From Candidatus Wolfebacteria bacterium GW2011_GWE2_44_13 (GTDB taxonomy: Bacteria > Patescibacteriota > Minisyncoccia > UBA6257 > UBA9933), in contig LCHW01000003.1 of NCBI GenBank assembly GCA_001000675.1, forward strand, positions 67,873 to 131,872: DNA of 64,000 nt. The letters are read 5' to 3'. The translations under genes and the position numbers were made by a program. Below, piece by piece: positions 15,145 to 57,944 of this stretch. The notes beneath the pieces are model-generated. The model was not told where the DNA came from and ran no database searches. It was given only the letters and a program-made list of their open reading frames with translations. Every line of letters begins with the position of its first letter. Within the stretch, counting starts at the first letter, position 1.

Positions 15145-15202
15145 AGTTATATTGACGACCTCTTTTTGTTTGTACTATACTAACTTGGTATCTATTTTAT
15201 AC

Positions 15203-15274
15203 GCCCCTGTAGCTCAGCCCGGTAGAGCACCTGCCTTTTAAGCAGTGTGTCGATGGTTCAAATCCATCCGGGGG
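15203..15274 (+). tRNA. tRNA-Lys (anticodon UUU), no encoded CCA
   Basis: GCCCCUG acceptor. D-stem GCUC/GAGC. Anticodon loop CUUUUAA. T-loop UUCAAAU. Confidence 0.8.
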
Positions 15275-15338
15275 CACATAGTCAATTCATATTAATTGAC
15301 TAACAATAACAGTTTCTCTATGATGAGGACGTTATAAT

Positions 15339-15414
15339 GCATCTCTAGCTCAATTGGTAGAGCAGGGGCCTCTTAAGCCCAAGGTTCCGGGTTCGATTCC
15401 CGGGGGATGCACCA
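15339..15414 (+). tRNA. tRNA-Lys (anticodon CUU), CCA encoded; abutted by recombinase gene
   Basis: GCAUCUC acceptor. Anticodon loop CUCUUAA. T-loop UUCGAUU. The 3' half is overlapped by the end of the 15350..17077 ORF. Confidence 0.8.
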
Positions 15415-17077
15415 CATGGGTTTCCGCATTGTCGGAAGCCTTAGAAAGCTGGAAAATCCAAGTCAATTTGGGTGTTCCATTACATATTTCTTCATACGTT
15501 GGAGTTTCTTCAAACACAAGCCCGAATAAGGCCTGTTGTTGCATGATATTCGTTGTGTTTAACAGCATTTCCGCGGGGTGTTCCATTATTTTTTTCGCGT
15601 CCCTAATAAAGTCGTCGATATCCCGCTCGGTGATCTCCATCTTGTTCCGTTCGGTTTGAGCACTTCTCATTCGTCGATCAATTGCTTCTATTTCTTTTTC
15701 TATCACTTGCCTGACCACGTCACTACCGGTGGCAATAAATGCCTTCACGGCTTGTGCCTTTTCTGCTTCGAGCTCGGACACATTAAGGCTGACTTCTGAC
15801 GCAACCTGCATAATCTCCCCTTGTCTCTCTCGGTAGCGATCAAGCAATACAGTATGCAAGCTGTTTATGATTTCCGGCTGAAAGTGTAGGTCGTTAATAA
15901 ACTTTTCGACAGATGCGTCAAAAGTCTCTTTTTTTATTCCAATATATTTGTGATCTCGGGCGCAGTGGTATGTCGGAAATCCCGCCCCGCTTTTACCCTT
16001 CGGAGAACTACCCAAAAATGGCTTCTTACAAATTGGACATAAGATACTCTTGTATGGGAACAGTGGGTTATTCCGCATGCGTTTATAAACAACGAGATCC
16101 GGGTGGTAATCATAGAGTGCCTCCAAAAAGTCCCCGTCTTTGCGGATAAATACTTTCCCCCTATTGGCAGCATTAAATGTCTCTATGGATACAAGCCCTT
16201 CATAAGCCGCCTTTACCGGCTTGTAATTCGTCCACTTCTCTACCAGAACCCCACAATAGATAGGCTTTCTTATGTGCTGTTGTAGTTTTTTAACATTTAA
16301 GACGCACTCTCCCGTTTGCCCAATTATTTCTTGATGGGTCGCCTTATCAAATTTGTTACGGAGCTTAGTTCTATACCCCATGGCATTTACCCTATCGACA
16401 ATCTCAATATCCGTGTACTGTCCCAATGCCCTCATTTCAAGCATGGCTATATAATACTTCGCTCGTTCAGGATCTGCGACTTGAATAGTACGCTTCTTGC
16501 CTCCAACATAAACCTTTTTATTAATATATCCATCTTGTGGAGCATTTGCCTTATACCCTTGTTGGGTTAGCCAAATTTCCTGTCCTATCATCCGTGTCAG
16601 GATTTTTGTAACCTCATCTTTTGCCGTTGTAGCAAGGACCACTTCCGATACTTCGCTCGGGGAAGATTGGCTCCACTCATATCCGAATCCATAATTTTCA
16701 AGCGTATTATAAGATGGCTGAATAATTCCATTCGTATCAAACATCTCCACCCCTCGCTTCATGAGTTCTCGCTTTATAAGTCCGTAAGCATCGGCTCCTC
16801 CTCGAGTACACCTGTCAATCGCCTTAAATACATAGTACTGAACTTTGCCGGGATTTTTATCAATAAAAGCGAGTATCTCCTGAAAAACAGGCCGCTGCTT
16901 TTTCCTTCCCGAAAAGCTTTCAAGCCATGGATCGTGCATAAGCTTCCACCCTTTTGCAATCGTTATTCTTTCACAGTTTTTGCTTTGCTCGCCCAAACTC
17001 TCCCCTTCTTGTGCCTGTTTAGTAGAGCTCACACGGCAGTGTATAATACAACCTTTTTGTTGATTATCTTTATTCAT
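15350..17077 (-). CDS. large serine recombinase (integrase); last ~22 codons are read-through of tRNA-Lys
   Basis: 575 aa. Catalytic IIHCRVSSTKQ resolvase domain. Recombinase domain. Zn ribbon CPICKKP...YHCARDH. Coiled coil. The C-terminus ..VVHPPGIEPGTLGLRGP is tRNA sequence. Confidence 0.8.
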   Translation of the reverse strand: MNKDNQQKGCIIHCRVSSTKQAQEGESLGEQSKNCERITIAKGWKLMHDPWLESFSGRKKQRPVFQEILAFIDKNPGKVQYYVFKAIDRCTRGGADAYGLIKRELMKRGVEMFDTNGIIQPSYNTLENYGFGYEWSQSSPSEVSEVVLATTAKDEVTKILTRMIGQEIWLTQQGYKANAPQDGYINKKVYVGGKKRTIQVADPERAKYYIAMLEMRALGQYTDIEIVDRVNAMGYRTKLRNKFDKATHQEIIGQTGECVLNVKKLQQHIRKPIYCGVLVEKWTNYKPVKAAYEGLVSIETFNAANRGKVFIRKDGDFLEALYDYHPDLVVYKRMRNNPLFPYKSILCPICKKPFLGSSPKGKSGAGFPTYHCARDHKYIGIKKETFDASVEKFINDLHFQPEIINSLHTVLLDRYRERQGEIMQVASEVSLNVSELEAEKAQAVKAFIATGSDVVRQVIEKEIEAIDRRMRSAQTERNKMEITERDIDDFIRDAKKIMEHPAEMLLNTTNIMQQQALFGLVFEETPTYEEICNGTPKLTWIFQLSKASDNAETHVVHPPGIEPGTLGLRGPCSTN

Positions 17078-17099
17078 GCTTGTTTTTTAGATAATAATC

Positions 17100-17297
17100 T
17101 TATCCGCCCTCATTCTCTCTATTATGCTGTAATTGTCCATTAAATCCAGCTTTTCTGGTATTGTTTCTTTCCAGCCACTGATCAAAAATTGCATCAGCCA
17201 TTCGATATTCCCAATCATAAAGTTGCCTGACCTGTTCTTCGGTTAAGCGTTCTCCGTAAGCGCCCAATAGATTTTTAAAATCAGTGATTGAAATCAT
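17100..17297 (-). CDS. hypothetical small protein adjacent to the integrase (possible RDF/Xis-type, speculative)
   Basis: 65 aa ORF directly upstream of int. No recognisable motif. Confidence 0.25.
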   Translation of the reverse strand: MISITDFKNLLGAYGERLTEEQVRQLYDWEYRMADAIFDQWLERNNTRKAGFNGQLQHNRENEGG

Positions 17298-17840
17298 ATT
17301 GTCGATTGATTGAAGACTTCGATTTATCTTTTTATCGCCGACCGCCTCACAATCCTTATCGTTCGCCTTAGCGCTTGGCTTATTAGCAAGGCGCGTATTC
17401 TATCTCTTTGTCTCTTTCCGCCCCACACGGGGCGATTTGTCCCCTATTTATGCCGTCCTTGGCGGCGTAGGAACCAAAAAAGCCCCCAAGACCAAACACA
17501 ACTCTTGGGTTATGTTCGATCTTGGAGGCTTTCCGCTCAATTACTATTTTAGTAACTAATCAGTGCTAACAGTTCTATGCCGACAAAAGACTGTTTGAAA
17601 GCGGCCCTACTCTTGAATTTACTGTATACGGGCTAAGCTAATAATCAACGGTTTTATAAGCACTGATTCTTGAAGTATTCTATTGTTCTTTCTTGAATTA
17701 AGTATAACACGCTACCCCTTTTATGTAGCATAAAACGAGGTAATATTCCCATTAAATGTGGGCGCGCAGACTCTTGACAGATTTATTTCTGACACCTTCT
17801 AAGCCGGCGGACCAGACTTAAATGCATTTTCGAATTCATA

Positions 17841-18230
17841 TTATTTCCTTCTCGTCTCCCTCGTTTTTTTCTCAAGATATTCGCTATCCATGGCCATTTT
17901 CCAGCCTTCTCGCGCGTGTAATATGAAATTAGGAATGTTAGAAACGACGGTAATCCCGAGGATTCCCCAGAAAGCCACTATTTCAATAGTTGCATACCCT
18001 AATTTAAACCACTCGACACTTACATAGTCGATGCCCCAGAGTAAGACACTTACAACAATTAATGTGGCCATGTGCAACGCAAACCCTCCCAGATTAACGG
18101 CAATTTGTTTTCTTCTAATAACTCCAATGAGGGCAACGACCGCTGCCACAAAACTTAGCCATGATTGCATAATGAGTCTTGCCGCTGCCCATCCAAGAAA
18201 TATAGCGATCACAATCCTTATAATTAGCAT
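17841..18230 (-). CDS. small membrane protein with about 4 TM (holin-like)
   Basis: 129 aa. Hydrophobic helices. Charged C-terminal tail KKTRETRRK. Immediately upstream of the secreted PG-binding protein gene. Confidence 0.4.
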   Translation of the reverse strand: MLIIRIVIAIFLGWAAARLIMQSWLSFVAAVVALIGVIRRKQIAVNLGGFALHMATLIVVSVLLWGIDYVSVEWFKLGYATIEIVAFWGILGITVVSNIPNFILHAREGWKMAMDSEYLEKKTRETRRK

Positions 18231-18244
18231 GTCTTTTATTATTT

Positions 18245-19342
18245 TTATTGAACTATTTTATAGTCTATATACCCGGAATCGTCATATTGTCCGCCACCGA
18301 ATCGATAGTACCCAGCGCTAATTGCCCTTATATGCCAGACCAATCGAAATGTTTCTCCGACTGATTTTAAATCTTCCTCCGTTATTTTATACTCAAGTGT
18401 ATTATTAGATACATACTTAAGTCTGTTATTTTCAAGCGAAACGGAGTCCATGAACGGCCTTGAGTTAGATTCCCAATTATATTCAATTCCTCTTCCCTGT
18501 GGATCTTTAGCTATAACAGTTGCCTTGAACGTATCCCCTACGCGTAAAATTCGTGATCCTTCGCTCGGCCAGCTGATGTAGGGACCCTTGTATTGGTTGT
18601 ACATAGATGTTTTATATGTATTTCCCTTACTATCTTCGAGGGAAAGAATTATAGGATACTGCTCATGTTCGGTATATGTATCCCGCTGTTCCTTTAGACG
18701 CTCTTCTTCGGCGTGTATCCTCTCTTCCTCTATTCGCTTGCGGTCCGCCTCTGCACTTTCTTGGTTACGCCTCAAAAGATCTGCTTGAATTTTTTCTCCA
18801 TCAACTCTATTCTGTTCGTCTATTAGTTTTCTATACGCTTCCTCTCGTGAGGACCTATCCTGCGTAGTGTTTTGGACTTTACCACTTAGCTGTACCGGAG
18901 ATTCTGCGAGGATTTTTTCAGAGCTCTTCGCGATATTTCTCGACTGTTCTAAGCTCTGGAACCGCCTCACGGCCCGCGCAGTCAGCTTGCCATAATAGCC
19001 GGTTATAATGCCTTCCGGGTAGATATTGATATCTGCCGCCAAAATCGTCTGGAGCGTCCTTACCTTCTCCCCGGATGAACCTTCTTTAAGTTGTTCAATC
19101 AACTGCAAGACATCAGTCATACCGACGGTATTAGTTGCTGTCTGCGGTTGAGCTTGTGCCTTCTGTAATGTTTGTAATTGTACAGTCAAACTTTCAATCT
19201 GTTTTTGTAGGGTCTGGATTAACGACTGCAGTGTCGCGGTTGTGGTTGATGCAGTCGTGGTCGTTTGTGCCGATGCAACGAACGCGTTGCCAAATATGAT
19301 CCCGACTACCAGTATGGTTACTATGTTTCTTTTTATGTTCAT
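18245..19342 (-). CDS. secreted protein with coiled coil and peptidoglycan-binding (PG_binding_1-like) domain
   Basis: 365 aa. Signal peptide ...FVASAQTTTT. GEKVRTLQTILAADINIYPEGIITGYYGKLTARAVRRFQ. Paralogous N-terminal architecture to 60775..61836. Confidence 0.55.
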   Translation of the reverse strand: MNIKRNIVTILVVGIIFGNAFVASAQTTTTASTTTATLQSLIQTLQKQIESLTVQLQTLQKAQAQPQTATNTVGMTDVLQLIEQLKEGSSGEKVRTLQTILAADINIYPEGIITGYYGKLTARAVRRFQSLEQSRNIAKSSEKILAESPVQLSGKVQNTTQDRSSREEAYRKLIDEQNRVDGEKIQADLLRRNQESAEADRKRIEEERIHAEEERLKEQRDTYTEHEQYPIILSLEDSKGNTYKTSMYNQYKGPYISWPSEGSRILRVGDTFKATVIAKDPQGRGIEYNWESNSRPFMDSVSLENNRLKYVSNNTLEYKITEEDLKSVGETFRLVWHIRAISAGYYRFGGGQYDDSGYIDYKIVQ

Positions 19343-19662
19343 GATTATTGGTTATGATTTAATGCTTATTTTATCTATATATGGTTTACACACCGACCTT
19401 TGCAGTCCTGGAGATGGTTTTTCGGATACAAAAAACCCACCACCAGGTAGACCTTACGGCCATATACAAGTTTCCCTGTATAACGCAACGAGCGATCCTG
19501 ATGATGGGATCTTTATGCTCGTTGCGATTTTGACCATACCACCAGGATTTCTCCTGATGGGTTAGGTCTACTGGATGATATTTAGTTGTTAATTTGTATT
19601 ATATACTCTTTATTCAGAAAATCCACGCTTTACTCAGCATGGATTTTTCTAATGGTATTTTA

Positions 19663-20055
19663 TTATCTACAGGACGAGGGCGGCTTTCGGTTTACGTATA
19701 GCGTTTGATATCCTGGATCTGTCTGAGTACTTGTCTTACATTCTGGACATCCATGGAACGCGCGATTTGCTCCGGGGCGCATTCGTACGGTTTTACTGTT
19801 CACATCCCAACAACGAGAGCAGAATGGGCCCTCCTCTTTTTCCCCTATTTTCCAATAAGCACCATTTCTGAATTCAAGACTATCCCTCACTTTAAGCAGC
19901 TCCTTTAATGCTCGATTCTCAATTTCAAGATCATAGATATGCTTTTGCTGATCAAGTAACTCTTTTTGAACAACTAAAATCTGCTCATATTGTTCAATCT
20001 TCCCAGCCTCTTTTAAAACAGCGGCTGCTGATTTTAATTCATCAAATATAGCCAT
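19663..20055 (-). CDS. hypothetical protein: coiled coil + C-terminal zinc ribbon
   Basis: 130 aa. CSRCWD...HGCPEC. Confidence 0.4.
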   Translation of the reverse strand: MAIFDELKSAAAVLKEAGKIEQYEQILVVQKELLDQQKHIYDLEIENRALKELLKVRDSLEFRNGAYWKIGEKEEGPFCSRCWDVNSKTVRMRPGANRAFHGCPECKTSTQTDPGYQTLYVNRKPPSSCR

Positions 20056-20272
20056 ATTTTATTTAACCTTTTTAGACTCTCACTCGATACATTTTCGCCG
20101 TATTTAGAGTGAATATGCAAAATTTCTACTAACTCTGATTCCTCGTATTTTTTCAGTTTATCAGTTTCCTTCTGTCCGCTTATGAACTCCGCCTCATTTA
20201 AAATACTACGTTTGATTATCCTTCTTTTTTCAATTAATCAATCCTGTTTTTTAGGATTTCTATGTAACCGGC

Positions 20273-21550
20273 TTAAGCTTGCAAATCCTGCTCCACCTCA
20301 ATCTCCGCCTCAAGCGCCTTATTCCATCTCTCAAGATAGTCAATATTCTTTTTGACAATTTCTTCATCCAATGGGGAGTACTTCTGATGCGCAGCTGTCA
20401 GATTCGCTATTAGATCGGCCAGACTCGTTTGCTCAATCGTATTCAATTCCATCTCTCGCGTATAAATAAAGTGGCGCTGTGCCTTTGAATGATCAACTTC
20501 GAGGGCAATAATATTGTCGGGGTCACTCTGAATAAGTGCCATGCTCTTTTTACACTCGATGTCGAGCAAACTGGCGTATCTCATATCCCTTAAAAGAGCA
20601 ATTGCCGTAGGGATTGCGAAAAATTCGTGAATGCCACGTATATAATATCTTGACGGAGGCCCCCCTCCTATTTTACTTACCCTGGCCTTTACCTCGCCAT
20701 AAAAAATGCCATTACAAACTCCGGTCATTCCAAGCTTACCCAATAGCAGAGAAAAGTAGCTCCCATAAAGATTTGTAACCTTAACATCTCTTTCCTTTGC
20801 AATTTTCACGAACGAAACAAGCTTTTTCAGCTTATTAATATCGGCAGTCTTTTCGTTTATATCATCTATCCAAATAAAAATCTCATCACATCCGGTGTAT
20901 TCCTTGATCAGACCCTCCGTAAGACTGTGAGAGTTTGTTGAGATTATTGGAATAACTTTCCCCGCAGTCTTTTCTTTTGTTTTGGCTAAAAGTTTCTTAT
21001 TTATACCAAGCCACTCATCAGCGAGATCGTTAAAATAAAAATATGGGGGAATAATTGCAATTGGCTTAAGCCCCCCTCCCTCTCCTTTTACTAAGTGCTC
21101 TGCGCCATTTTTAATGAGAAATTTTTCATATTTTTTAATAGCGCGCCCTCTCTCACTCTCCATCTTCTGAGTCTGTAGTATGATGTTTTTTTCGCAAAAG
21201 CTATCGATAAAATCATCCGTAAAATCTGCAGGGCGAAGGGCTGCGTATGCCGAATTGGTAAAGTGGCTACTTAGACCATAATCCGTAGTTAATTTCGCTA
21301 TTGAAGGTTTAAATTTACTTTCACCAGTTTTTTTGTCCGGGACTACATAGTCCGCTATATTGTTAAGCGCATAAATATATGTCATGGGATCAATGTAATA
21401 TCCCTTATTAATATACTCGGCCGCCATGATAGTAGGATTTGAAGAGTACGAAAGAATGTGGGCTGGAATGAAAATGCCAGAAATTAATCCTCTGAGTTCT
21501 TTTATAACCTCCCTATCCCTATGGACGCCGAATCTGATAAAAAAGTTCAT
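20273..21550 (-). CDS. hypothetical 425-aa protein, last gene of 4-gene overlapping operon; no recognisable family
   Basis: 4-bp overlap with the upstream gene. No Walker, HEPN or other motif recognised by eye. Confidence 0.5.
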   Translation of the reverse strand: MNFFIRFGVHRDREVIKELRGLISGIFIPAHILSYSSNPTIMAAEYINKGYYIDPMTYIYALNNIADYVVPDKKTGESKFKPSIAKLTTDYGLSSHFTNSAYAALRPADFTDDFIDSFCEKNIILQTQKMESERGRAIKKYEKFLIKNGAEHLVKGEGGGLKPIAIIPPYFYFNDLADEWLGINKKLLAKTKEKTAGKVIPIISTNSHSLTEGLIKEYTGCDEIFIWIDDINEKTADINKLKKLVSFVKIAKERDVKVTNLYGSYFSLLLGKLGMTGVCNGIFYGEVKARVSKIGGGPPSRYYIRGIHEFFAIPTAIALLRDMRYASLLDIECKKSMALIQSDPDNIIALEVDHSKAQRHFIYTREMELNTIEQTSLADLIANLTAAHQKYSPLDEEIVKKNIDYLERWNKALEAEIEVEQDLQA

Positions 21551-21957
21551 GCTAATTTTAAATTATTACTGCAGAAATAAGCTCGAATTACCTTGCTGGA
21601 ACTATTTCCTCCTGGCTCAATTTCGACCCGTGGTTTGAATTCTTCATTGATCACTATTAACCCAACTCCAGCATTTTCGAAAATTTTCCTATTATTTAAT
21701 GCTGGCGTGGCATGCTGATGCCAAACAGCGAGATAGGATTGATCACAAGCAAGCGCGTTTACTCTTGCCTGTCTAAGACCACACTGCCAATCTTTAAGTT
21801 TAATCTCGATAGCTACAACATTCTCATCGTCCCTTTCTTTCTTCACAATGTCAATCCTTTTGCGTGCAAAAGCTGCTTGTCGTAGTACAATACAATCTTG
21901 TGATCGATAATATGAGGCAAGCTTCACCTCGACTTTTTTTTCTGTTATTTTAGACAT
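21547..21957 (-). CDS. small PD-(D/E)xK nuclease-fold protein (restriction-endonuclease-like)
   Basis: 136 aa. RIDIV...(15)...VVAIEIK gives a D...ExK arrangement. Overlaps both neighbours by 4 and 8 bp. Confidence 0.45.
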   Translation of the reverse strand: MSKITEKKVEVKLASYYRSQDCIVLRQAAFARKRIDIVKKERDDENVVAIEIKLKDWQCGLRQARVNALACDQSYLAVWHQHATPALNNRKIFENAGVGLIVINEEFKPRVEIEPGGNSSSKVIRAYFCSNNLKLA

Positions 21958-22606
21958 TTTTGAGATTATCTATAGTTTTCTCGTTTAAAACATATTTTCC
22001 CCCAAAAACTAAGACTATGCATTGCAAGACTAACCACCCCACAGCCCCCCAGGAAGAAATTGGGGAATTCTTTGTTGCAATAATCACTATCCCATCTATT
22101 ATTTGCAAGCAAGATAGGACAGCAACCCCAAGTGCTATTGTATTATTTTGCCTTGAGCATTTTTTAAGCACAACCCTACTCTTCTTCCCTTTTATGAGAT
22201 TTTCTAACTTAACTTGAAACTCAATTACTTCTTCGATTGCCTTATACTGGATACTTTTAAGCCCTTTAATGAGCTCCAATTTATACTCATCTTGGAAAAA
22301 ATCTTTAACATCTGTACCTTCAGGAATATCTGAGATTCGTCGAGAAACTTCCTCAACAAGATTATCCGCAAGAACGTCGCGTAGCGGGGCAACCATGTCG
22401 GTGTATATTCTTTCGTCTAATATATCTTGTATCTGCGTATCCCTATCTCCGTTAATATGATTGTAATGCATCCATAATCTAATAGACCCCACCAAAAATA
22501 GAATGGGTATTGCAAAAATTGCGAACTCCTGGATATTTGTGGTTATCAGTAGCGACTTAATCGCATCTAAATTTGACGTAGTCGCAATTGTGCTGGTCGT
22601 CATCAT
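21950..22606 (-). CDS. membrane protein (1 N-terminal + 2 C-terminal TM), candidate toxin/effector
   Basis: 218 aa. FAIFAIPILFLVGSIRLW. IALGVAVLSCLQIIDGIVIIA. WGAVGWLVLQCIVLVFGG. Sits immediately downstream of the Panacea-domain gene. Confidence 0.45.
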   Translation of the reverse strand: MMTTSTIATTSNLDAIKSLLITTNIQEFAIFAIPILFLVGSIRLWMHYNHINGDRDTQIQDILDERIYTDMVAPLRDVLADNLVEEVSRRISDIPEGTDVKDFFQDEYKLELIKGLKSIQYKAIEEVIEFQVKLENLIKGKKSRVVLKKCSRQNNTIALGVAVLSCLQIIDGIVIIATKNSPISSWGAVGWLVLQCIVLVFGGKYVLNEKTIDNLKNV

Positions 22607-23163
22607 TTTAATACCTGATGCTTAATTTCTGAATTTACAGTCATATCCGGATAATTCTCATAGACGTACTTTAAAAGCTGTCTAAGAGGCCAGTTCCCGT
22701 ATCGTACTTTTATTGCCTCTATACTATTTCGACTCTTACTATCAAGTTCGCCCCAGAGCTCTTTAGCAACCGCTTCGCCAATATCCGTTAATTTAAATTC
22801 AACATCGACCTCAGAATTGTCTGGGGGAATTTCTTCAAACTGAATATCGTCAATGTATTTAATCTGCTCAGGACTTATTTCGGTACTCTGTCCCGTTCTT
22901 TTTGCAATTCCTTTTACGAGTGGGTGTTCTGGGTCGGGAAAATTACGCAAGAACTCAAGTTCGGGATAAACTTCGCTCGAAAACGGGCCCATTTTATATG
23001 GGGCGAAAGAAAATTTATCATTAATACCTTCTTCTCTGTCGAGGAGGAATAGCAGCTTCATAAGGCGCGTGATGCCTTGGATCGACTCACTGGATTGTCC
23101 TTTCATTCCTCTACTGTAGAGTAAAAGCAAGATTAAATCCGATTTTTCAAGTGTACCGATCAT
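22603..23163 (-). CDS. Panacea domain (DUF4065, SocA/PanA-like) protein, antitoxin-type
   Basis: 186 aa. ITRLMKLLFLLD...FSFAPYKMGPFSSEVY matches the DUF4065 core (KLqKLLYfaqg...FeAWkyGPVvpsvY). A TATAAT sits 6-11 nt upstream of the ATG with no SD, so the mRNA may be leaderless. Confidence 0.55.
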   Translation of the reverse strand: MIGTLEKSDLILLLLYSRGMKGQSSESIQGITRLMKLLFLLDREEGINDKFSFAPYKMGPFSSEVYPELEFLRNFPDPEHPLVKGIAKRTGQSTEISPEQIKYIDDIQFEEIPPDNSEVDVEFKLTDIGEAVAKELWGELDSKSRNSIEAIKVRYGNWPLRQLLKYVYENYPDMTVNSEIKHQVLK

Positions 23164-23229
23164 ATATTATATTATAGATTAATTAAACTCATTCTACCAG
23201 TAAAATTGTCTTCCTCACTATCGGCACCG

Positions 23230-23694
23230 TTACTCATCTTCATCCTCCTCGTCCAGCGCCCTTTCATACGCCTCAGCTGCTGCGAGCTCAGCTTTTGTCG
23301 GGAGGTGCTGTTCCTCCGTCTTTATCTCCCCGCCGTGCTGGATCCCCTGTAACGGTTTTCCTTGCGTGCGATCGAAGTACTCCTTGATCGCGGCAATGTT
23401 CTTACGGTTATGCCCCTCACTATAGAGCACATCGAGAAGGGCTTGCACCCTCGTCTTGGTAACAATCCTTGTTCCCCCAGTCGCCTTATCTACTTCTACG
23501 ACATCCACCTCTTCGAGTATATGAGCATCGTGGATTGCTTTTATTTCTAATCTTTCCAGCTTATCCTGGTTTGACTTTCTTCCCGATCCCGGCCGAAATC
23601 CTCCCCGTCCAATTCCATTGGGGATATATTTTTTTCCGCTCTTTACCGTTCCGCGTTCGAATTCCTTATTTTTTGATTTCTCTTCTTTTTTCAT
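23230..23694 (-). CDS. hypothetical protein, basic Gly-rich N-terminus (GRGGFRPGSGRK), acidic C-terminus
   Basis: 154 aa. 66 bp upstream of the Panacea operon. Confidence 0.35.
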   Translation of the reverse strand: MKKEEKSKNKEFERGTVKSGKKYIPNGIGRGGFRPGSGRKSNQDKLERLEIKAIHDAHILEEVDVVEVDKATGGTRIVTKTRVQALLDVLYSEGHNRKNIAAIKEYFDRTQGKPLQGIQHGGEIKTEEQHLPTKAELAAAEAYERALDEEDEDE

Positions 23695-23903
23695 TTTATC
23701 AATTTCACCCTTACTCTCTTTCTCTTCTTGTTCTATTCCCTATGAGGTATGAATGCATACTATATACCTGCACAATTATTGCCTTATTTTACTCCCCTTA
23801 TTAAACATATACTTGTATGCCATACGTGGCGAATACATTTTTCCAGTGTAATACGGTCTGTTCTATGGTGTTCCATCCAACACCCAAGTCGTGCACCAAA
23901 AAC

Positions 23904-23938
23904 AAAAACCACCAGCCCAAGGCTGGTGGTTTTTGTTT
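23904..23938. repeat. hairpin repeat copy 1 AAAAACCACCAGCCCAAGGCTGGTGGTTTTTGTTT (bidirectional terminator-like)
   Basis: Identical to copy 2 at 24511..24546 and near-identical to copy 3 at 25658..25690. Confidence 0.8.
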
Positions 23939-24053
23939 ATACACCATATATCCTTTTACATTGCCCTAAAAACTTGACTTATTTTAGTATTAATGGTATT
24001 ATTTATTTAACAGTTCGCTAGGCACATTTATAAAAACTATATAGGAGAATTTC

Positions 24054-24467
24054 ATGAAAACCGTCGCCTTGTCGATTGCCTTCCTCTTATTTCTTTTAGG
24101 GTGCTCGCAACAAGAGGGGTCTGTCTTTCGGACAGGCATCGTCGTTAGAAAAGATCATCAACCCGAAAAATACTGGGTACAGGACGGCAACCTTTTTACT
24201 GTCACTGTTGTCGGAAAAGCTTCGTTTACAACGAATAATCGGATGCTTCTCCTACACCACCAGTGTGAGTCTTGGATGCTCGTCCTCCAAGATGCGACAA
24301 GCAATAACAAGGAGCGCATCGTATATGTTCCTCAGAGCACTTACGATGCCACGCCCATTGGGTCCGCGTACCGGTTCGACTATTGGTACGACAGAAACGA
24401 GCCAACCGTCGATCGCCAAGCTGCAACAGCGGAGGATATTTCCTCCTATGGCGTTCAGAAACAGTAG
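24054..24467 (+). CDS. lipoprotein (LLGC lipobox), GC-rich ORFan
   Basis: 137 aa. Signal MKTVALSIAFLLFLLGC. Flanked by identical hairpins. Confidence 0.5.
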   Translation: MKTVALSIAFLLFLLGCSQQEGSVFRTGIVVRKDHQPEKYWVQDGNLFTVTVVGKASFTTNNRMLLLHHQCESWMLVLQDATSNNKERIVYVPQSTYDATPIGSAYRFDYWYDRNEPTVDRQAATAEDISSYGVQKQ

Positions 24468-24510
24468 TTCCCCGCCGCCATGTCTTATGACCTCTGGCGG
24501 CTTTTTTATC

Positions 24511-24546
24511 AAAAACCACCAGCCCAAGGCTGGTGGTTTTTGTTTT
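24511..24546. repeat. hairpin repeat copy 2
   Basis: Same 35-bp sequence as copy 1. Confidence 0.8.
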
Positions 24547-24599
24547 GCATGATTCCTAAAAAAACTGCGCCCTTGAGAGGGCGCAGTTGCTGCGAAAAA

Positions 24600-25601
24600 C
24601 TACAGAGCTCTATACAGCTCACCTGCTTTCTCTTTAGCTTTGTCGAAGACGTCGGCCGGAATTTTACTGTAGTCTTGAATAAATTCGAGGAACCACTCCG
24701 GGATTGCATCTGCTCGTATGGGCGAAATTAGCTGCCTAATTTTCCCATCAATGTTCTTCGTAAATACTTCGCAGTCAGATTTCCATTCCCTGTGCTCCAT
24801 CAACGTCTTGACGTCATTAATCGAGTGAATGTATTCCATTATCCGGGCTTCAACAAGTTTTTCTGGTATGGAGCCTTCTTCGGTTCTGCGCCAGTAGTCA
24901 TCCAGCGTATCCGCGCTGCGCGTTGTCGACAGAAGCGCCTGTATTCGAGCCCCGATTAGTTTCCGGGGTTCGGAGTTTTCGCTTGTTCGCTGCCAATACC
25001 TCACGAGGTTGTCGAAATCGACAGCTAGCAGAAGAATCCCTGGAAGGAGCTTCGCTATGCGATTCTCAATGAGCCGCTGCGGTATCGTATTATCAGCGAC
25101 GCTTTCCCAGTAATCCAGAAGGAGCTCCATGTCCGTTATAAGCGGAATAAGCTCTGCCATGCGATTCTCAATGAGCCGCTGCGGCGGGGAATCTTCACTT
25201 GTAGCACTCCAATACGCAATAAGCACTTCGATGCTTGTAACGGACGGGAGGACTTCCAAAAGGAGCTCCGCCATACGAGCCTCGATAAGGCGCTGCGGCA
25301 CAGATTTTGCACTGGTATTTCCCCAGTATCCGCACAACAGCTCCATGTCGGTAACTCCCGGGAGAATCACTGACAAAACCTCTGCCATGCGATTCTCGAC
25401 GAGTCGCTGCAACACCGACCCTTCATTCGTTCCCTCCCAGCACCCTATCAGGTCGTCAATGTCGGTGGTGGTAGAAATCTTTAAAATCGCTTTTTCTCCT
25501 CCAATTTCTTTGCCGATAAAGTTCCCAAGAATGTTTCTTGCGTCATGCATCGCCCTGCTCCTTTCTCTAGTTATTTTTTTAGTGCTGAGATTATTCAACA
25601 C
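24600..25601 (-). CDS. tandem-repeat protein (about 6 x 34-38 aa repeats, consensus ..ELL..YW..TSE.S.PQRLIENRMAELL..)
   Basis: 333 aa. The repeats are visible at the DNA level, e.g. gccatgcgattctcaatgagccgctgcgg recurs around 25050, 25160 and 25380. Confidence 0.5.
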   Translation of the reverse strand: MLNNLSTKKITRERSRAMHDARNILGNFIGKEIGGEKAILKISTTTDIDDLIGCWEGTNEGSVLQRLVENRMAEVLSVILPGVTDMELLCGYWGNTSAKSVPQRLIEARMAELLLEVLPSVTSIEVLIAYWSATSEDSPPQRLIENRMAELIPLITDMELLLDYWESVADNTIPQRLIENRIAKLLPGILLLAVDFDNLVRYWQRTSENSEPRKLIGARIQALLSTTRSADTLDDYWRRTEEGSIPEKLVEARIMEYIHSINDVKTLMEHREWKSDCEVFTKNIDGKIRQLISPIRADAIPEWFLEFIQDYSKIPADVFDKAKEKAGELYRAL

Positions 25602-25657
25602 TTTTTTATTTATTTTGTCAAATTATGCAGCCCACTTTCCTTATTTCTTGTGCTATA

Positions 25658-25690
25658 CAAAAACCACCAGCCTTAGGCTGGTGGTTTTTG
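25658..25690. repeat. hairpin repeat copy 3 (CCACCAGCCTTAGGCTGGTGG), also the terminator of pyk
   Basis: 2-nt loop difference from copies 1 and 2. Confidence 0.7.
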
Positions 25691-25695
25691 ATTTC

Positions 25696-26757
25696 TTACT
25701 TCTTCGCCTTCTTGTACTCGCCGAGGGTTTCTGTTTCAAAGAAGTTTTCTCGTGCGGTATATTCTTCAATGCGTCGCACAATCTTTGCCATTGTGGCAAC
25801 CGCTTTTGCTGGGTGCTTACCCGCTGCAGTTTCATCGGAAAGCATAACTGCATCCCCTCCTTCAAATACTGCATTCGCAACATCACTTACTTCTGCGCGT
25901 GTTGGATGATCATGATCGATTAATGTCATCATCATCTGTGTTGCTACGATTGCCGGCTTGTTGTGCCAGTGTGCGTGGCGGATTAAGTTCTTTTGAATAA
26001 TCGGCAAATCCTCCATCGGTATTTCAATTCCAAGGTCTCCTCGCGCAATCATAATACCGTCAGATTCTTCGATAATCTCGTCGATGTTATCGAGCGCCAA
26101 GGCACGCTCTATCTTTGCGATAATCTTGATCTTTTTATCAGGAAATACGCTACGCAATTTTGTAATGTCTTCTGCGGATTGCACAAACGAAAGCGCAATA
26201 TAATCAACACCTTCAGCTACGCCAAACTTTGCATCTTCGATATCTTTATCAGTTACTCCGCCGCGCGTTAGGTTTGTGCGAGGAACGTTAATTCCCTTCT
26301 TTGAGAATAATGTTCCTCCGGTTACAACCTTTGCGTGTATCTGTGATCCTTGTACGTCAACAATATCCAATTCCATTGCACCGTTGGCAAGGAAAAACGG
26401 CTCACCCTTTTTTACATCGATGTGCAAATAGGCATCGTCAATCGGAATAATTCCTCCTGGAACATATTCACTTTGTTCAAAAGAGAAAACAAACGTTTCA
26501 CCTTCTTTAAGCTCAACGCCTTCTGCTGGTAATTTTCCTACGCGAATACGCGGACCTTGTAAGTCCTGCATAATTTCGATATCTGTTCCCAACTCTTTAT
26601 TTATGCGTGCAATATGTTCTTTTCGTCCGCGATATTCTTCTACCGTGCAGTGAGAAAAGTTCATGCGAGCAATATTTAATCCAGCCTCTGCCATAGCCTT
26701 TAACTCTTCGTATGAATCAGACTTTGGTCCAATAGTTGCAACAATTTTTGTTTTCAT
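25696..26757 (-). CDS. pyk: pyruvate kinase (short form lacking C-terminal regulatory domain)
   Basis: 353 aa. MKTKIVATIGP, NFSHC, MIARGDLGIE motifs. Confidence 0.85.
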   Translation of the reverse strand: MKTKIVATIGPKSDSYEELKAMAEAGLNIARMNFSHCTVEEYRGRKEHIARINKELGTDIEIMQDLQGPRIRVGKLPAEGVELKEGETFVFSFEQSEYVPGGIIPIDDAYLHIDVKKGEPFFLANGAMELDIVDVQGSQIHAKVVTGGTLFSKKGINVPRTNLTRGGVTDKDIEDAKFGVAEGVDYIALSFVQSAEDITKLRSVFPDKKIKIIAKIERALALDNIDEIIEESDGIMIARGDLGIEIPMEDLPIIQKNLIRHAHWHNKPAIVATQMMMTLIDHDHPTRAEVSDVANAVFEGGDAVMLSDETAAGKHPAKAVATMAKIVRRIEEYTARENFFETETLGEYKKAKK

Positions 26758-26852
26758 TCTGTTATATATGGTTATTGTGAGTTTACTAGTATAGGCGATT
26801 CATTTTCTTTTGCAAGAGCAAAAAAGCGCCCAATAGGGGCGCTTTACATACT

Positions 26853-41937: not shown

Positions 41938-41949
41938 TTTTATAATTCT

Positions 41950-42009
41950 GTCATTCCCGCGGAGGCGGGAATCTATAGAGCACTGGATTCCCTCCTCCGC
42001 GGGAATGAC
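41950..42009. repeat. two inverted REP-like repeat copies (GTCATTCCCGCGGAGGCGGGAATC and GGATTCCCTCCTCCGCGGGAATGAC)
   Basis: The pair sits in the VKOR-dsbA intergenic region. Confidence 0.8.
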
Positions 42010-42022
42010 AATTCAGAAAACA

Positions 42023-53220: not shown

Positions 53221-53243
53221 GATAATAAAATTATTTTTGTAAT

Positions 53244-53268
53244 GGATTCCCGCCTTCGCGGGAATGAC
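53244..53268. repeat. REP-like palindromic repeat copy GGATTCCCGCCTTCGCGGGAATGAC, followed by the GCCCGCGGGC palindrome
   Basis: Consensus copy, immediately upstream of recA. Confidence 0.85.
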
Positions 53269-53398
53269 AGGCCCGCGGGCACTTGTGTATTTGGATAAAG
53301 TGCGCGGCGCGGGGAAGTCGGCGAGGAAGGTGTGCTGATTGTACACCGACCGATCCGACGGGGCTCCATAACGAAGCAATTTGCCAAATACACAAGTT

Positions 53399-57369: not shown

Positions 57370-57374
57370 ATGTT

Positions 57375-57434
57375 GTCATTCCCGCGAAGGCGGGAATCCA
57401 GCATTTAATAGATTCCCGCCTTCGCGGGAATGAC
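57375..57434. repeat. two inverted REP-like repeat copies (GTCATTCCCGCGAAGGCGGGAATCC and GATTCCCGCCTTCGCGGGAATGAC)
   Basis: Immediately downstream of rnhB. Confidence 0.85.
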
Positions 57435-57944
57435 AAAAAATATAAAAAAGAAAAAGCCCCATCCGAAGATGGAGCTTATCATGAGCCGACCGAAGTCAGC
57501 GAAAGAAACGAAGGTGCTTGTCGTCCGCCTAGAGCAGAAGACCAATGTGCTTGCTTGAGGGACAAGTGTTTCCCTTGAGCGAAAGTGTTTGCTGTAAAGA
57601 ATATATTTTTCTTTACATGCGATTTATAAAACTTCGGAGAGAAGTAAAGAGAAGAAATATTAGAGAAGTGAGAAAATTTAATTGTAGGGCAGTAAGGTTG
57701 AATGTGCTGGCGATTACCGACACAAGTGATCAGTTTGTGTGGCTTTCACGAGAACAACCAAAGATGCATTCAGGGGTTGTCGTATACCTCCTGCAAAAAA
57801 CGATGTTTCTCTTTTCCTCTATGAAGTTTTATACTTCTATTATATAGTTCCTTGTATCGTAATGCAACTATATTTGTGGATAACCGCGTAAAGTTCGCCC
57901 GAGGCGAACCACGCGGCAAGACCCTTTTCGCGCTATATTATTTT

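Follow-up and report, generated by a model that had tools for sequence, protein, structure and literature searches.

In mycobacteria and streptococci, serine integrases are found at protein-coding or intergenic sites and tyrosine integrases at tRNA genes (PMC10654092; PMC5357655), and the survey of large serine recombinases (LSRs) by Durrant et al. analyses protein-coding target genes, with no mention of tRNA (PMC10083194). The nearest precedent that we found for a serine recombinase at a tDNA, and the only one, is provided by the ssrA islands of Dehalococcoides, in which a CcrB-like serine recombinase, DsiB, lies by the 3' end of the transfer-messenger RNA (tmRNA) gene; their repeat measures 20 bp, and insertion is predicted to fall in the T-loop (PMC3146451). 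Recombinases that disrupt their own genes occur, according to a review, exclusively in archaea (PMC8371274). Here we describe an 8,484-bp integrative element at the 3' end of a tRNA-Lys(CUU) gene, in a 64,000-nt stretch of DNA (hereafter the window) from a groundwater genome of Candidatus Wolfebacteria (Candidate Phyla Radiation [CPR]/Patescibacteria; contig LCHW01000003.1, forward-strand positions 67,873–131,872). The element was very probably inserted by its own LSR, by site-specific recombination into the last 7 bp of the tRNA gene and at an attachment site (attP) that lies inside the integrase open reading frame (ORF). A serine integrase at a tRNA 3' end with attP in its own ORF departs from textbook serine-integrase behaviour, and in the full-text literature that we searched, serine integrases are not known to use tRNA genes as targets and LSRs at such genes are not described, although its coverage is incomplete, so that an earlier description may exist; the preliminary description of the locus, made from the sequence alone, had already called such targeting unusual.

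With the LSRs of phages and of integrative and conjugative elements (phiC31, Bxb1, TP901-1 and the A118/LI type), the present system shares the domain order of the enzyme and short attachment (att) sites with a small core and a near-palindromic attP; the known members of that group use protein-coding or intergenic targets, whereas here the target is a tRNA 3' end, attP lies in the integrase ORF, and the last ~30 residues of the protein are exchanged. The Dehalococcoides islands, which we set against this clade by the published description of DsiB (PMC3146451), are likewise small, carry variable cargo, and encode a ~540-residue serine recombinase on the reverse strand, adjoining the 3' end of a tRNA-like gene. 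In contrast to the element described here, which has a single LSR and a small upstream ORF (orf65) and shares 7 bp (3–8 in the family) with tRNA-Lys at positions ~70–76, they target a tmRNA gene, with insertion placed in the T-loop and a 20-bp repeat, and encode, besides DsiB, a small recombinase, DsiA, along with a module of six genes; no overlap of an ORF with an att site and no tail exchange have been reported for them. The tRNA islands of tyrosine integrases resemble the element in their tRNA 3' target, in the restoration of an intact tRNA, in the tRNA-proximal position of the integrase, and in forming hotspots of strain variation, but their enzymes belong to an unrelated family with unrelated chemistry, and they have a long tRNA-fragment repeat rather than 7 bp.

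The target gene comes after tRNA-Arg(tcg) and tRNA-Lys(ttt) on the plus strand (ARAGORN), and the adjoining CCA-adding enzyme is 87–89% identical to those of named Wolfebacteria genomes; the identical integrase protein occurs on six contigs of Rifle aquifer assemblies, with the same context each time. Two genomes with an empty site, GCA_003508115.1 (L170) and GCA_000993695.1 (L171), were found through contigs encoding exactly the 137-amino-acid (aa) protein of window positions 24054–24467. In both, tRNA-Lys is joined directly to a hairpin and the 137-aa gene, which follows immediately after the tRNA cluster. The two genomes match the window at 100% identity over 15195–15414 and at 99.7% over 23892–26816, and because these flank alignments overlap by exactly 7 nt, TGCACCA, the insertion is delimited to positions 15415–23898: a clean insertion at the tRNA 3' end, flanked by two copies of the heptamer (Table 1). 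The core comprises the top of the acceptor stem, the discriminator base and the CCA of tRNA-Lys, and the acceptor/T-arm side of the gene forms the B arm of the left junction (attL). Because the core is identical in attP and in the chromosomal site (attB), the tRNA sequence is unaltered by the insertion.

The preliminary description had proposed an integrated element of ~10 kb at this tRNA gene, spanning 15339–25690, and had suggested comparison with strains lacking the insertion and a test of base composition. The integration and its left end at the tRNA are borne out, but the right end lies at 23898, and the genes at 24054–25601 belong to the host. A right boundary at pyk (25690), with an insertion of ~10.3 kb, seems plausible against a more distant empty site (L003), where tRNA-Lys(ctt) is followed by 61 nt with a terminator hairpin and then by the end of pyk; it is ruled out by L170 and L171, in which 23899–25690 is host DNA. 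Composition also sets the element apart, with a tetranucleotide distance 7.9 standard deviations above that of same-size host chunks and a GC content of 0.411 against ~0.43 in the host, and the 80 related species loci that surround the CCA-enzyme gene are all free of LSR homologues. A direct repeat of the tRNA 3' segment had been expected as well, and it exists, but only as 7 bp, which is why it was not visible by eye: a repeat search gave no tRNA 3'-end repeat of more than 7 bp, and the 25-nt tRNA 3' end has no second copy at up to 3 mismatches. A short att repeat is usual for serine recombinases.

The integrase gene is antisense to the tRNA and overlaps it by 65 nt. Those 65 nt, the last of the gene, run antisense through the tRNA from its CCA end as far as the anticodon arm and contain 21 sense codons, the first of which straddles the boundary, and the stop codon, so the C-terminus of the integrated form (...AETHVVHPPGIEPGTLGLRGPCSTN, then stop) is tRNA-encoded, as had been noticed from the sequence. 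The further suggestion that such an overlap is simply typical of elements at tRNA 3' ends does not hold, since the overlap arises because attP lies inside the integrase ORF. The right junction (attR) was revealed by the C-termini of homologues: when the motif of their native tails was searched for in all six frames of the window, one full match was obtained, on the minus strand at 23875, directly after the host hairpin, TTTT and TGGTGCA. Read on the minus strand, attL is ...GCGGAAACCCATG-TGGTGCA-TCCCCCGGGAATCGAACC (tRNA), attR is (hairpin)TTTT-TGGTGCA-CGACTTGGGTGTTGGATGGAACACC..., and attB in L171 is (hairpin)TTTT-TGGTGCA-TCCCCCGGG...; attP rebuilt from attL and attR is ...GAAACCCATG-TGGTGCA-CGACTTGGG... 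(sequence stretches: attP, …GCGGAAACCCATGTGGTGCACGACTTGGGTGTTGGATGGAAC…; attB, …CCCGGGGGATGCACCAAAAACAAAAACCACC…). Joining the element ends gives a 586-aa ORF with the native tail of the family, ending ...THVVHDLGVGWNTIEQTVLHWKNVFATYGIQVYV before the stop (also given as ...WNTIEQTVLHWKNVF...), and attP is therefore placed inside the integrase ORF. Insertion swaps the last 29 native residues for 18 tRNA-encoded ones, past a shared VVH, and the segment coding for the native tail is left 8.5 kb away at attR, beside the original terminator of the tRNA.

The same arrangement is seen throughout the family. We compared 81 metagenome and viral loci encoding relatives of the integrase, among which 57 unique loci have a complete 3' end: in 33, the ORF stops inside an antisense tRNA (22 Glu, 6 Trp, 3 Lys and 2 Arg), in 5 it reads right through one (Trp or Arg), 18 have a native tail without a nearby tRNA, and 1 is unclear. 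Because 38 of the 57 share the antisense overlap in one reading frame, the overlap is not a product of chance. The frame relative to the tRNA is constant, with the Val codon of 'LV' covering tRNA positions 74–72 and the T-loop always read as G-[IVLF]-E-P, and the length of the tRNA-encoded tail is arbitrary (overlaps of 33 to >74 nt). Of the 120 best homologues in the database, 67 end in tRNA-like tails (LV.P.G[IVLF]EP...) and 47 in native tails (LV....G..WNT[IL]E.T[IVL]..W...F); the two types are phylogenetically interleaved, and pairs drawn from both classes are up to 81% identical. A detached native tail is present in 13 of the 15 tRNA-overlapping loci that have at least 5.8 kb of upstream DNA, 4.6–11.6 kb upstream and on the same strand, preceded by a host-type hairpin and a T-run and with only 3–8 nt in common with the tRNA end. 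The native-tail form is the attP configuration; the direct support comes from a single locus, L179 (GC 0.46), in which the intact site matches the P' arm from attL of locus L088 joined to the P arm from attR of that locus. Native-tail homologues were also considered as integrations into another conserved RNA, such as tmRNA, which is ruled out, with no Rfam match in 12 loci and neither tRNA nor tmRNA reported by ARAGORN. In several elements the host side of attR reads TTTT-GTGA (L126; also L097, L100, L104, L110 and L120) and the element side then supplies TGG (CCA) at the tRNA end, so that some target tRNA genes apparently had no encoded CCA before insertion. The design thus recurs in dozens of related elements, and to judge from the loci collected, the clade appears widespread, mostly in CPR bacteria.

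Sister elements also narrow down the crossover. Their cores differ (e.g., GTGA for Glu, TGCGGGC for Trp and TGTCC for a Lys), and their intersection would place the crossover dinucleotide within tRNA positions 73–71, that is, at the discriminator base and the top of the acceptor stem. A crossover in the T-loop, with a ~24-nt block of identity, had to be considered, as native tails resemble the tRNA up to 'G.E'; it is ruled out by the cores, which are 3–8 nt long and end at the top of the acceptor stem, and the likeness of the native tail to the tRNA is a similarity between half-sites. Dyad symmetry calculated over 19 attP sequences peaks at the axis TGGTG|CA, with 8.1 of 20 positions matched against a background of ~5, and by manual reading 11 of the inner 14 bp of the window attP are symmetric; attP thus appears to be an imperfect palindrome centred on TGGTG|CA within integrase codons. 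The Asn codon of the invariant Trp-Asn pair is AAC in 30 of 30 attP and attR P arms (window 23875–23870), against 37% AAC elsewhere in integrase genes, and the hexamer TGGAAC is conserved as DNA ~18–23 bp from the crossover. This bias points to a DNA-level constraint 18–23 bp from the att centre. Serine integrases place their zinc-ribbon contacts at 18–23 bp from the centre of the site.

The preliminary assignment of the enzyme to the LSRs agrees with Pfam matches to Resolvase (PF00239, E = 2.9e-12) and Recombinase (PF07508, E = 2.3e-5; 25.0 bits against a cutoff of 21.1). In 48 homologues, R15-V16-S17 of the RVSS serine motif is at least 90% conserved, and C347, C350, H371, C372 and H376 of a Cys/His zinc ribbon are invariant. 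The clade is divergent, since only the catalytic domain finds Protein Data Bank (PDB) relatives by sequence (profile match to TP901-1 integrase, 3bvp, E = 2.2e-9). An AlphaFold model built on the 48-homologue alignment (mean predicted local distance difference test score [pLDDT] 82) contains the catalytic domain, a long alpha-E helix, the recombinase domain, the Cys/His ribbon, and two long coiled-coil helices (401–449 and 453–480); with Foldseek, 572 columns of it align to a complex of a serine integrase with its recombination directionality factor (9dxd_A, E = 2.2e-15), and phiC31 (4bqq) is matched at E = 3.4e-6, although identity to solved integrases is only ~14%. By its predicted domain order (resolvase, recombinase, zinc ribbon plus coiled coil), the enzyme is a large serine recombinase. 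No second recombinase was found in the element with Pfam or PHROGs, the LSR is the single recombinase of the window, and no ORF of 15415–23898 has a Phage_integrase domain.

The tRNA-encoded tail (residues 547–575) is predicted to be disordered (AlphaFold, pLDDT ~40), and the model of a native-tail homologue has a strand (555–559) and a helix (564–577) at pLDDT 66–80, a contrast that is suggestive of an exchange of an ordered tail for a disordered one. In the mechanism that we propose, the free element would make the 586-aa integrase with its conserved strand-plus-helix tail (LV..G..WNTIE.T.L.W..VF), and attB would have the tRNA acceptor/T-arm as one half and the trailer of the tRNA, with its terminator hairpin, as the other. 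Recombination of attP with attB would fuse the body of the integrase to the antisense tRNA; after insertion, the ORF would end with the 18 tRNA-encoded residues beyond VVH and the native tail would be stranded at attR, while the core common to attP and attB would keep the tRNA intact. Excision would rejoin the segment at 23801–23891 to the integrase and so restore the 586-aa protein.

Integration also moves the tRNA's own terminator hairpin off to attR. Shortly past the CCA, inside the integrase coding sequence (CDS), there is another hairpin (Table 1), with a minimum free energy of -12.6 kcal/mol; no control window in the integrase gene is equally stable. Equivalent hairpins in 32 elements (the window and 31 loci) average -7.5 kcal/mol against -3.4 kcal/mol for controls from the same genes, with 14 of the 32 in the lowest 5%. 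Their sequence varies between elements while stability is kept, and they have no U-run. The post-CCA hairpin may replace the displaced tRNA terminator.

Table 1. Positions of the tRNA target, the junctions, the element's genes and RNA, and the adjoining host features in the window (aa, amino acids)
Feature	Position	Strand	Basis or remarks
tRNA-Lys(CUU), target gene	15339..15414	+	ARAGORN (ctt); Rfam tRNA match 15339-15411
LSR gene, integrated form, 575 aa	15350..17077	-	last 65 nt antisense to tRNA; Pfam, AlphaFold/Foldseek
attL core TGCACCA, left copy of the 7-bp repeat that holds the crossover, tRNA positions ~70-76	15408..15414	+	L171 flank alignments
Hairpin GGGTTTCCG-CATTGT-CGGAAGCCT inside the integrase CDS, 3 nt past the tRNA CCA	15418..15441	+	
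orf65, small helical protein directly upstream of the integrase	17100..17297	-	tblastn, alignment
Strong terminator-like hairpin, 20-bp stem and T-run	17482..17529	-	parts cargo from the orf65-integrase unit
Cargo ORF, 129 aa, hydrophobic	17841..18230	-	no family match
Cargo ORF, 365 aa, secreted, PG_binding_1 domain	18245..19342	-	Pfam PF01471, E = 3.6e-6
LOOT RNA (Rfam RF03000)	19447..19568	-	just 5' of the secreted-protein gene
Cargo ORF, 130 aa, coiled coil and Cys-rich C-terminus	19663..20055	-	no family match
Four overlapping cargo ORFs, 425, 136, 218 and 186 aa	20273..23163	-	overlapping stop/start codons
Cargo ORF, 154 aa	23230..23694	-	no family match
Detached native integrase 3' end (DLGVGWNTIEQTVLHWKNVFATYGIQVYV, then stop), P arm of attR	23801..23891	-	six-frame motif search
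attR core TGCACCA, right repeat copy, right end of the insertion	23892..23898	+	L171 alignment
Host hairpin CAAAAACCACCAGCCCAAGGCTGGTGGTTTTTG, native tRNA-Lys terminator, B' side of attB	23903..23938		outside the element; in L171 4 nt past the tRNA CCA
Host genes: 137-aa lipoprotein-like (+) and 333-aa (316-aa as called) repeat protein (-)	24054..25601	+/-	adjoin tRNA-Lys in L170 and L171

How the island arrived could also be told with the serine recombinase as a mere passenger, the overlap being an accidental read-through after insertion by another route, either a tyrosine integrase acting in trans or homologous recombination; tRNA 3' ends are classic targets of tyrosine integrases (PMC4383910), and some native-tail homologues lie in islands that also encode a Phage_integrase protein. 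We find this scarcely credible, as the repeat is 7 bp long instead of the 15–50-bp tRNA fragment that tyrosine integrases leave, the junction always falls at one codon and in one frame, whichever of the four tRNA identities is concerned, the rest of this same ORF has been displaced to the opposite end of the element, and the element encodes no other recombinase. Nor does the gene content suit a small or degraded prophage, in which the peptidoglycan-binding and membrane proteins would be a lysis cassette and the recombinase a phage integrase: capsid, portal, terminase, tail and replication families are absent from the Pfam and PHROGs results, the peptidoglycan-binding protein has a signal peptide and is without a catalytic lysin domain, the element is only 8.5 kb long, and sister elements of 4.6–11.6 kb share only the integrase, orf65 and the LOOT RNA and carry defence-type cargo. 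The PG_binding_1 domain with its weak PHROG endolysin matches, the adjoining hydrophobic 129-aa ORF, and a homologue in an IMG/VR contig speak for a prophage, but that homologue is the only one among 2.9 million viral contigs, and we hold this origin to be very improbable.

A more serious alternative, though still an unlikely one, is that the element is a locked remnant: loss of the native strand and helix would inactivate the integrase, as in the 'suicidal' integrases of archaea, and leave a fixed island without self-excision. This bears on activity after insertion and not on the mode of arrival. The tRNA-encoded tail, which varies arbitrarily in length from element to element (33 to >74 nt) and for which disorder is predicted where the native tail is predicted to be ordered, fits such a loss, as do the failure to detect an excised form in IMG/VR and the integrated state of all six contigs with the exact protein. 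On the other hand, neither the integrase ORF nor orf65 nor the detached tail is broken, the element is missing from strains whose right flank is ~99.7% identical, which implies recent insertion or loss, and the detached tails are open and conserved in 13 of 15 sister elements, suggesting repeated passage through the excised state.

Insertion by the element's own LSR, with attP in the integrase ORF, remains our preferred explanation, and several observations weigh against it. Recombinase activity, present-day mobility and the position of the crossover are inferred. In the window element the dyad axis falls on a palindromic GC; if this were the true overlap, control of orientation would be lost, and the centre is uncertain by ~1 bp. 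The contrast in order between the two tail models may stem in part from their differing alignments. An exact search of IMG/VR found neither an excised circle nor the attP junction of the window element, and no circular forms or terminal overlaps were seen in 25 whole contigs. Finally, many native-tail homologues lie inside long, higher-GC, non-CPR chromosomal contigs of up to 1.16 Mb, where they may be passengers on larger elements or something else; some of these homologues (L164–L168, L102, L113, L118 and L145) stand beside ParB_N, TrwB-like, HTH, Ros/MucR and Phage_integrase genes.

The closest parallel to the exchange of tails is found in the archaeal SSV-type 'suicidal' tyrosine integrases, which likewise have the recombination site in their own gene and a product that is changed by integration (PMC8371274). 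Those are archaeal tyrosine recombinases whose gene is split into two large, non-functional parts, whereas here the enzyme is a bacterial serine recombinase that has only its last 29 native codons detached, with 18 tRNA-encoded ones in their place, and keeps its catalytic and DNA-binding domains intact. We tentatively suggest, as a possibility rather than an expectation, that these elements are the bacterial serine-recombinase counterpart of the archaeal self-disrupting integrases, in which the tail would be a record of the state of the element and could bias the direction of recombination. If so, the native form would be proficient in integration and the swapped form would be restricted to excision or inactive, perhaps together with orf65; the clade would be a dedicated lineage of LSRs targeting tRNA 3' ends and moving small defence or cargo islands through the CPR, with LOOT as a core part.

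Apart from the integrase, the small ORF upstream of it and the LOOT RNA, the 14 delimited elements have no component in common, and their cargo is variable. Matches to orf65 were obtained by tblastn in 53 places, nearly all of them just 5' of the integrase, and extra copies occur downstream of the native-tail integrases in L109 and L177. The family is ~50–65 aa long, with the consensus MI.L.EFKKLLG..A..LSDEEI..LRD.E...AD..FD.WL; no Pfam or PDB relative was found, and weak EF-hand-like matches (E of 0.003 or worse) look compositional. By its position and conservation orf65 is a candidate directionality or regulatory factor.

LOOT is listed by Rfam (RF03000) as an sRNA without an assigned function, and no discussion of the motif was found in the full texts searched. 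In the window, the Rfam model is matched over its full length at 19449–19568, with 75.5 bits (gathering score, 46.4), and a custom covariance model scores 106.9 bits. With the Rfam model, LOOT was found in 7 of 9 sister elements scanned; with the custom model, which was built from these matches, there are 21 matches in 0.94 Mb of recombinase loci, L179 included, and none in 1.16 Mb of LSR-free CPR loci, the window element itself excepted. Examples are L100 7140–7261, L120 4234–4354, L126 4432–4553, L121 3567–3688, L088 7318–7438, L122 9353–9470, L141 8782–8906, L135 8745–8867 and L179 3064–3178, among others. In every case, a gene whose product is a secreted or membrane protein follows just downstream of the RNA, and its alignment contains covarying stems with GNRA-type loops. 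LOOT thus appears to be a conserved, element-borne 5' leader and a conserved component of serine-integrase elements.

Among the cargo genes, the peptidoglycan-binding protein named in the preliminary description is supported by its Pfam match (Table 1); it has a signal peptide and no catalytic lysin domain, its weak PHROG endolysin matches cover the binding domain only, and a homologue of it follows LOOT in L088. The 'holin-like' and 'Zn-ribbon' proteins found no family support in Pfam or PHROGs. The 'Panacea operon' does consist of four overlapping ORFs, but the Pfam match of the 186-aa ORF to SocA_Panacea is below threshold (PF13274, E = 0.04; 15.3 bits against a cutoff of 25.7), although it spans nearly the whole profile; the same ORF matches PADLOC PDC-M19A (2.6e-13). 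The 425-, 136- and 218-aa ORFs have no match in Pfam, PHROGs or PADLOC, and the 218-aa protein, adjoining the 186-aa ORF, is a membrane protein. In seven sister elements (L121, L126, L132, L134, L135, L148 and L122), the cargo includes an N6_N4 methylase with a ResIII helicase (type III restriction-modification), a 1520-aa SF1 helicase with a nuclease domain, an OLD-family ATPase-TOPRIM nuclease, three NTPases (KAP, HerA-like and GHKL) and a Dam methylase, so that the family looks like a shuttle for small defence or cargo islands. With Pfam and PHROGs, the window element yielded no recognisable genes for a virion (capsid, portal, terminase or tail), for replication or for conjugation, and the best description is therefore that of a small integrative island, which may be mobilisable or a satellite, rather than of a prophage.

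For mobile-element biology and annotation, these observations overturn the working rule by which an island in a tRNA gene is taken to be the work of a tyrosine integrase: programs that search for tyrosine integrases or for long repeats of tRNA fragments will overlook the whole class, which seems to be common in the CPR/Patescibacteria, a group in which mobile elements have been little mapped. An integrase whose product changes upon integration was believed to be confined to archaea, and the serine version makes the question of LSR directionality testable through two natural tails with and without orf65. LSRs are valued in genome engineering, and a clade that reads the conserved tRNA acceptor/T-arm could offer predictable, non-disruptive landing sites in every genome. 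The orphan LOOT RNA, in turn, can now be placed in the genome, as part of a defined mobile element.

In Wolfebacteria, a hotspot that varies from strain to strain lies between tRNA-Lys(CUU) and pyk/tRNA-Gly (L004 1–9000 and L005 1744–9229 against L003 6776–9426): in L005 and L004 it is occupied by genes for a substrate-binding protein and a histidine kinase of 835 aa, in L003 it is empty, and in the window lineage it contains two small genes and the element. The larger of the two host proteins, of 333 aa (24600–25601, minus strand), is built of ~34–38-residue repeats (...PQRLIENRMAELL...), which are visible in the DNA as four copies at 25042–25412 with a spacing of 102–114 nt, and it has no family match. 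A perfect 36-nt palindrome, CAAAAACCACCAGCC(CAA/TTA)GGCTGGTGGTTTTTG, occurs at 23903–23938, 24510–24545 and 25658–25693, all in host DNA between tRNA-Lys and pyk, with no more copies in the 64 kb and a related copy at L004 4126–4180. That the three near-identical copies are att remnants of tandem insertions is ruled out, since all are present at the empty site and resemble ordinary bidirectional terminators. A second palindromic element, of ~62 nt, is found at 41947–42012, 57374–57436 and 53239–53269 in the window and at L003 12097–12161 and L004 9929–9993, and is common to the window and related Wolfebacteria genomes at 82–100% identity.

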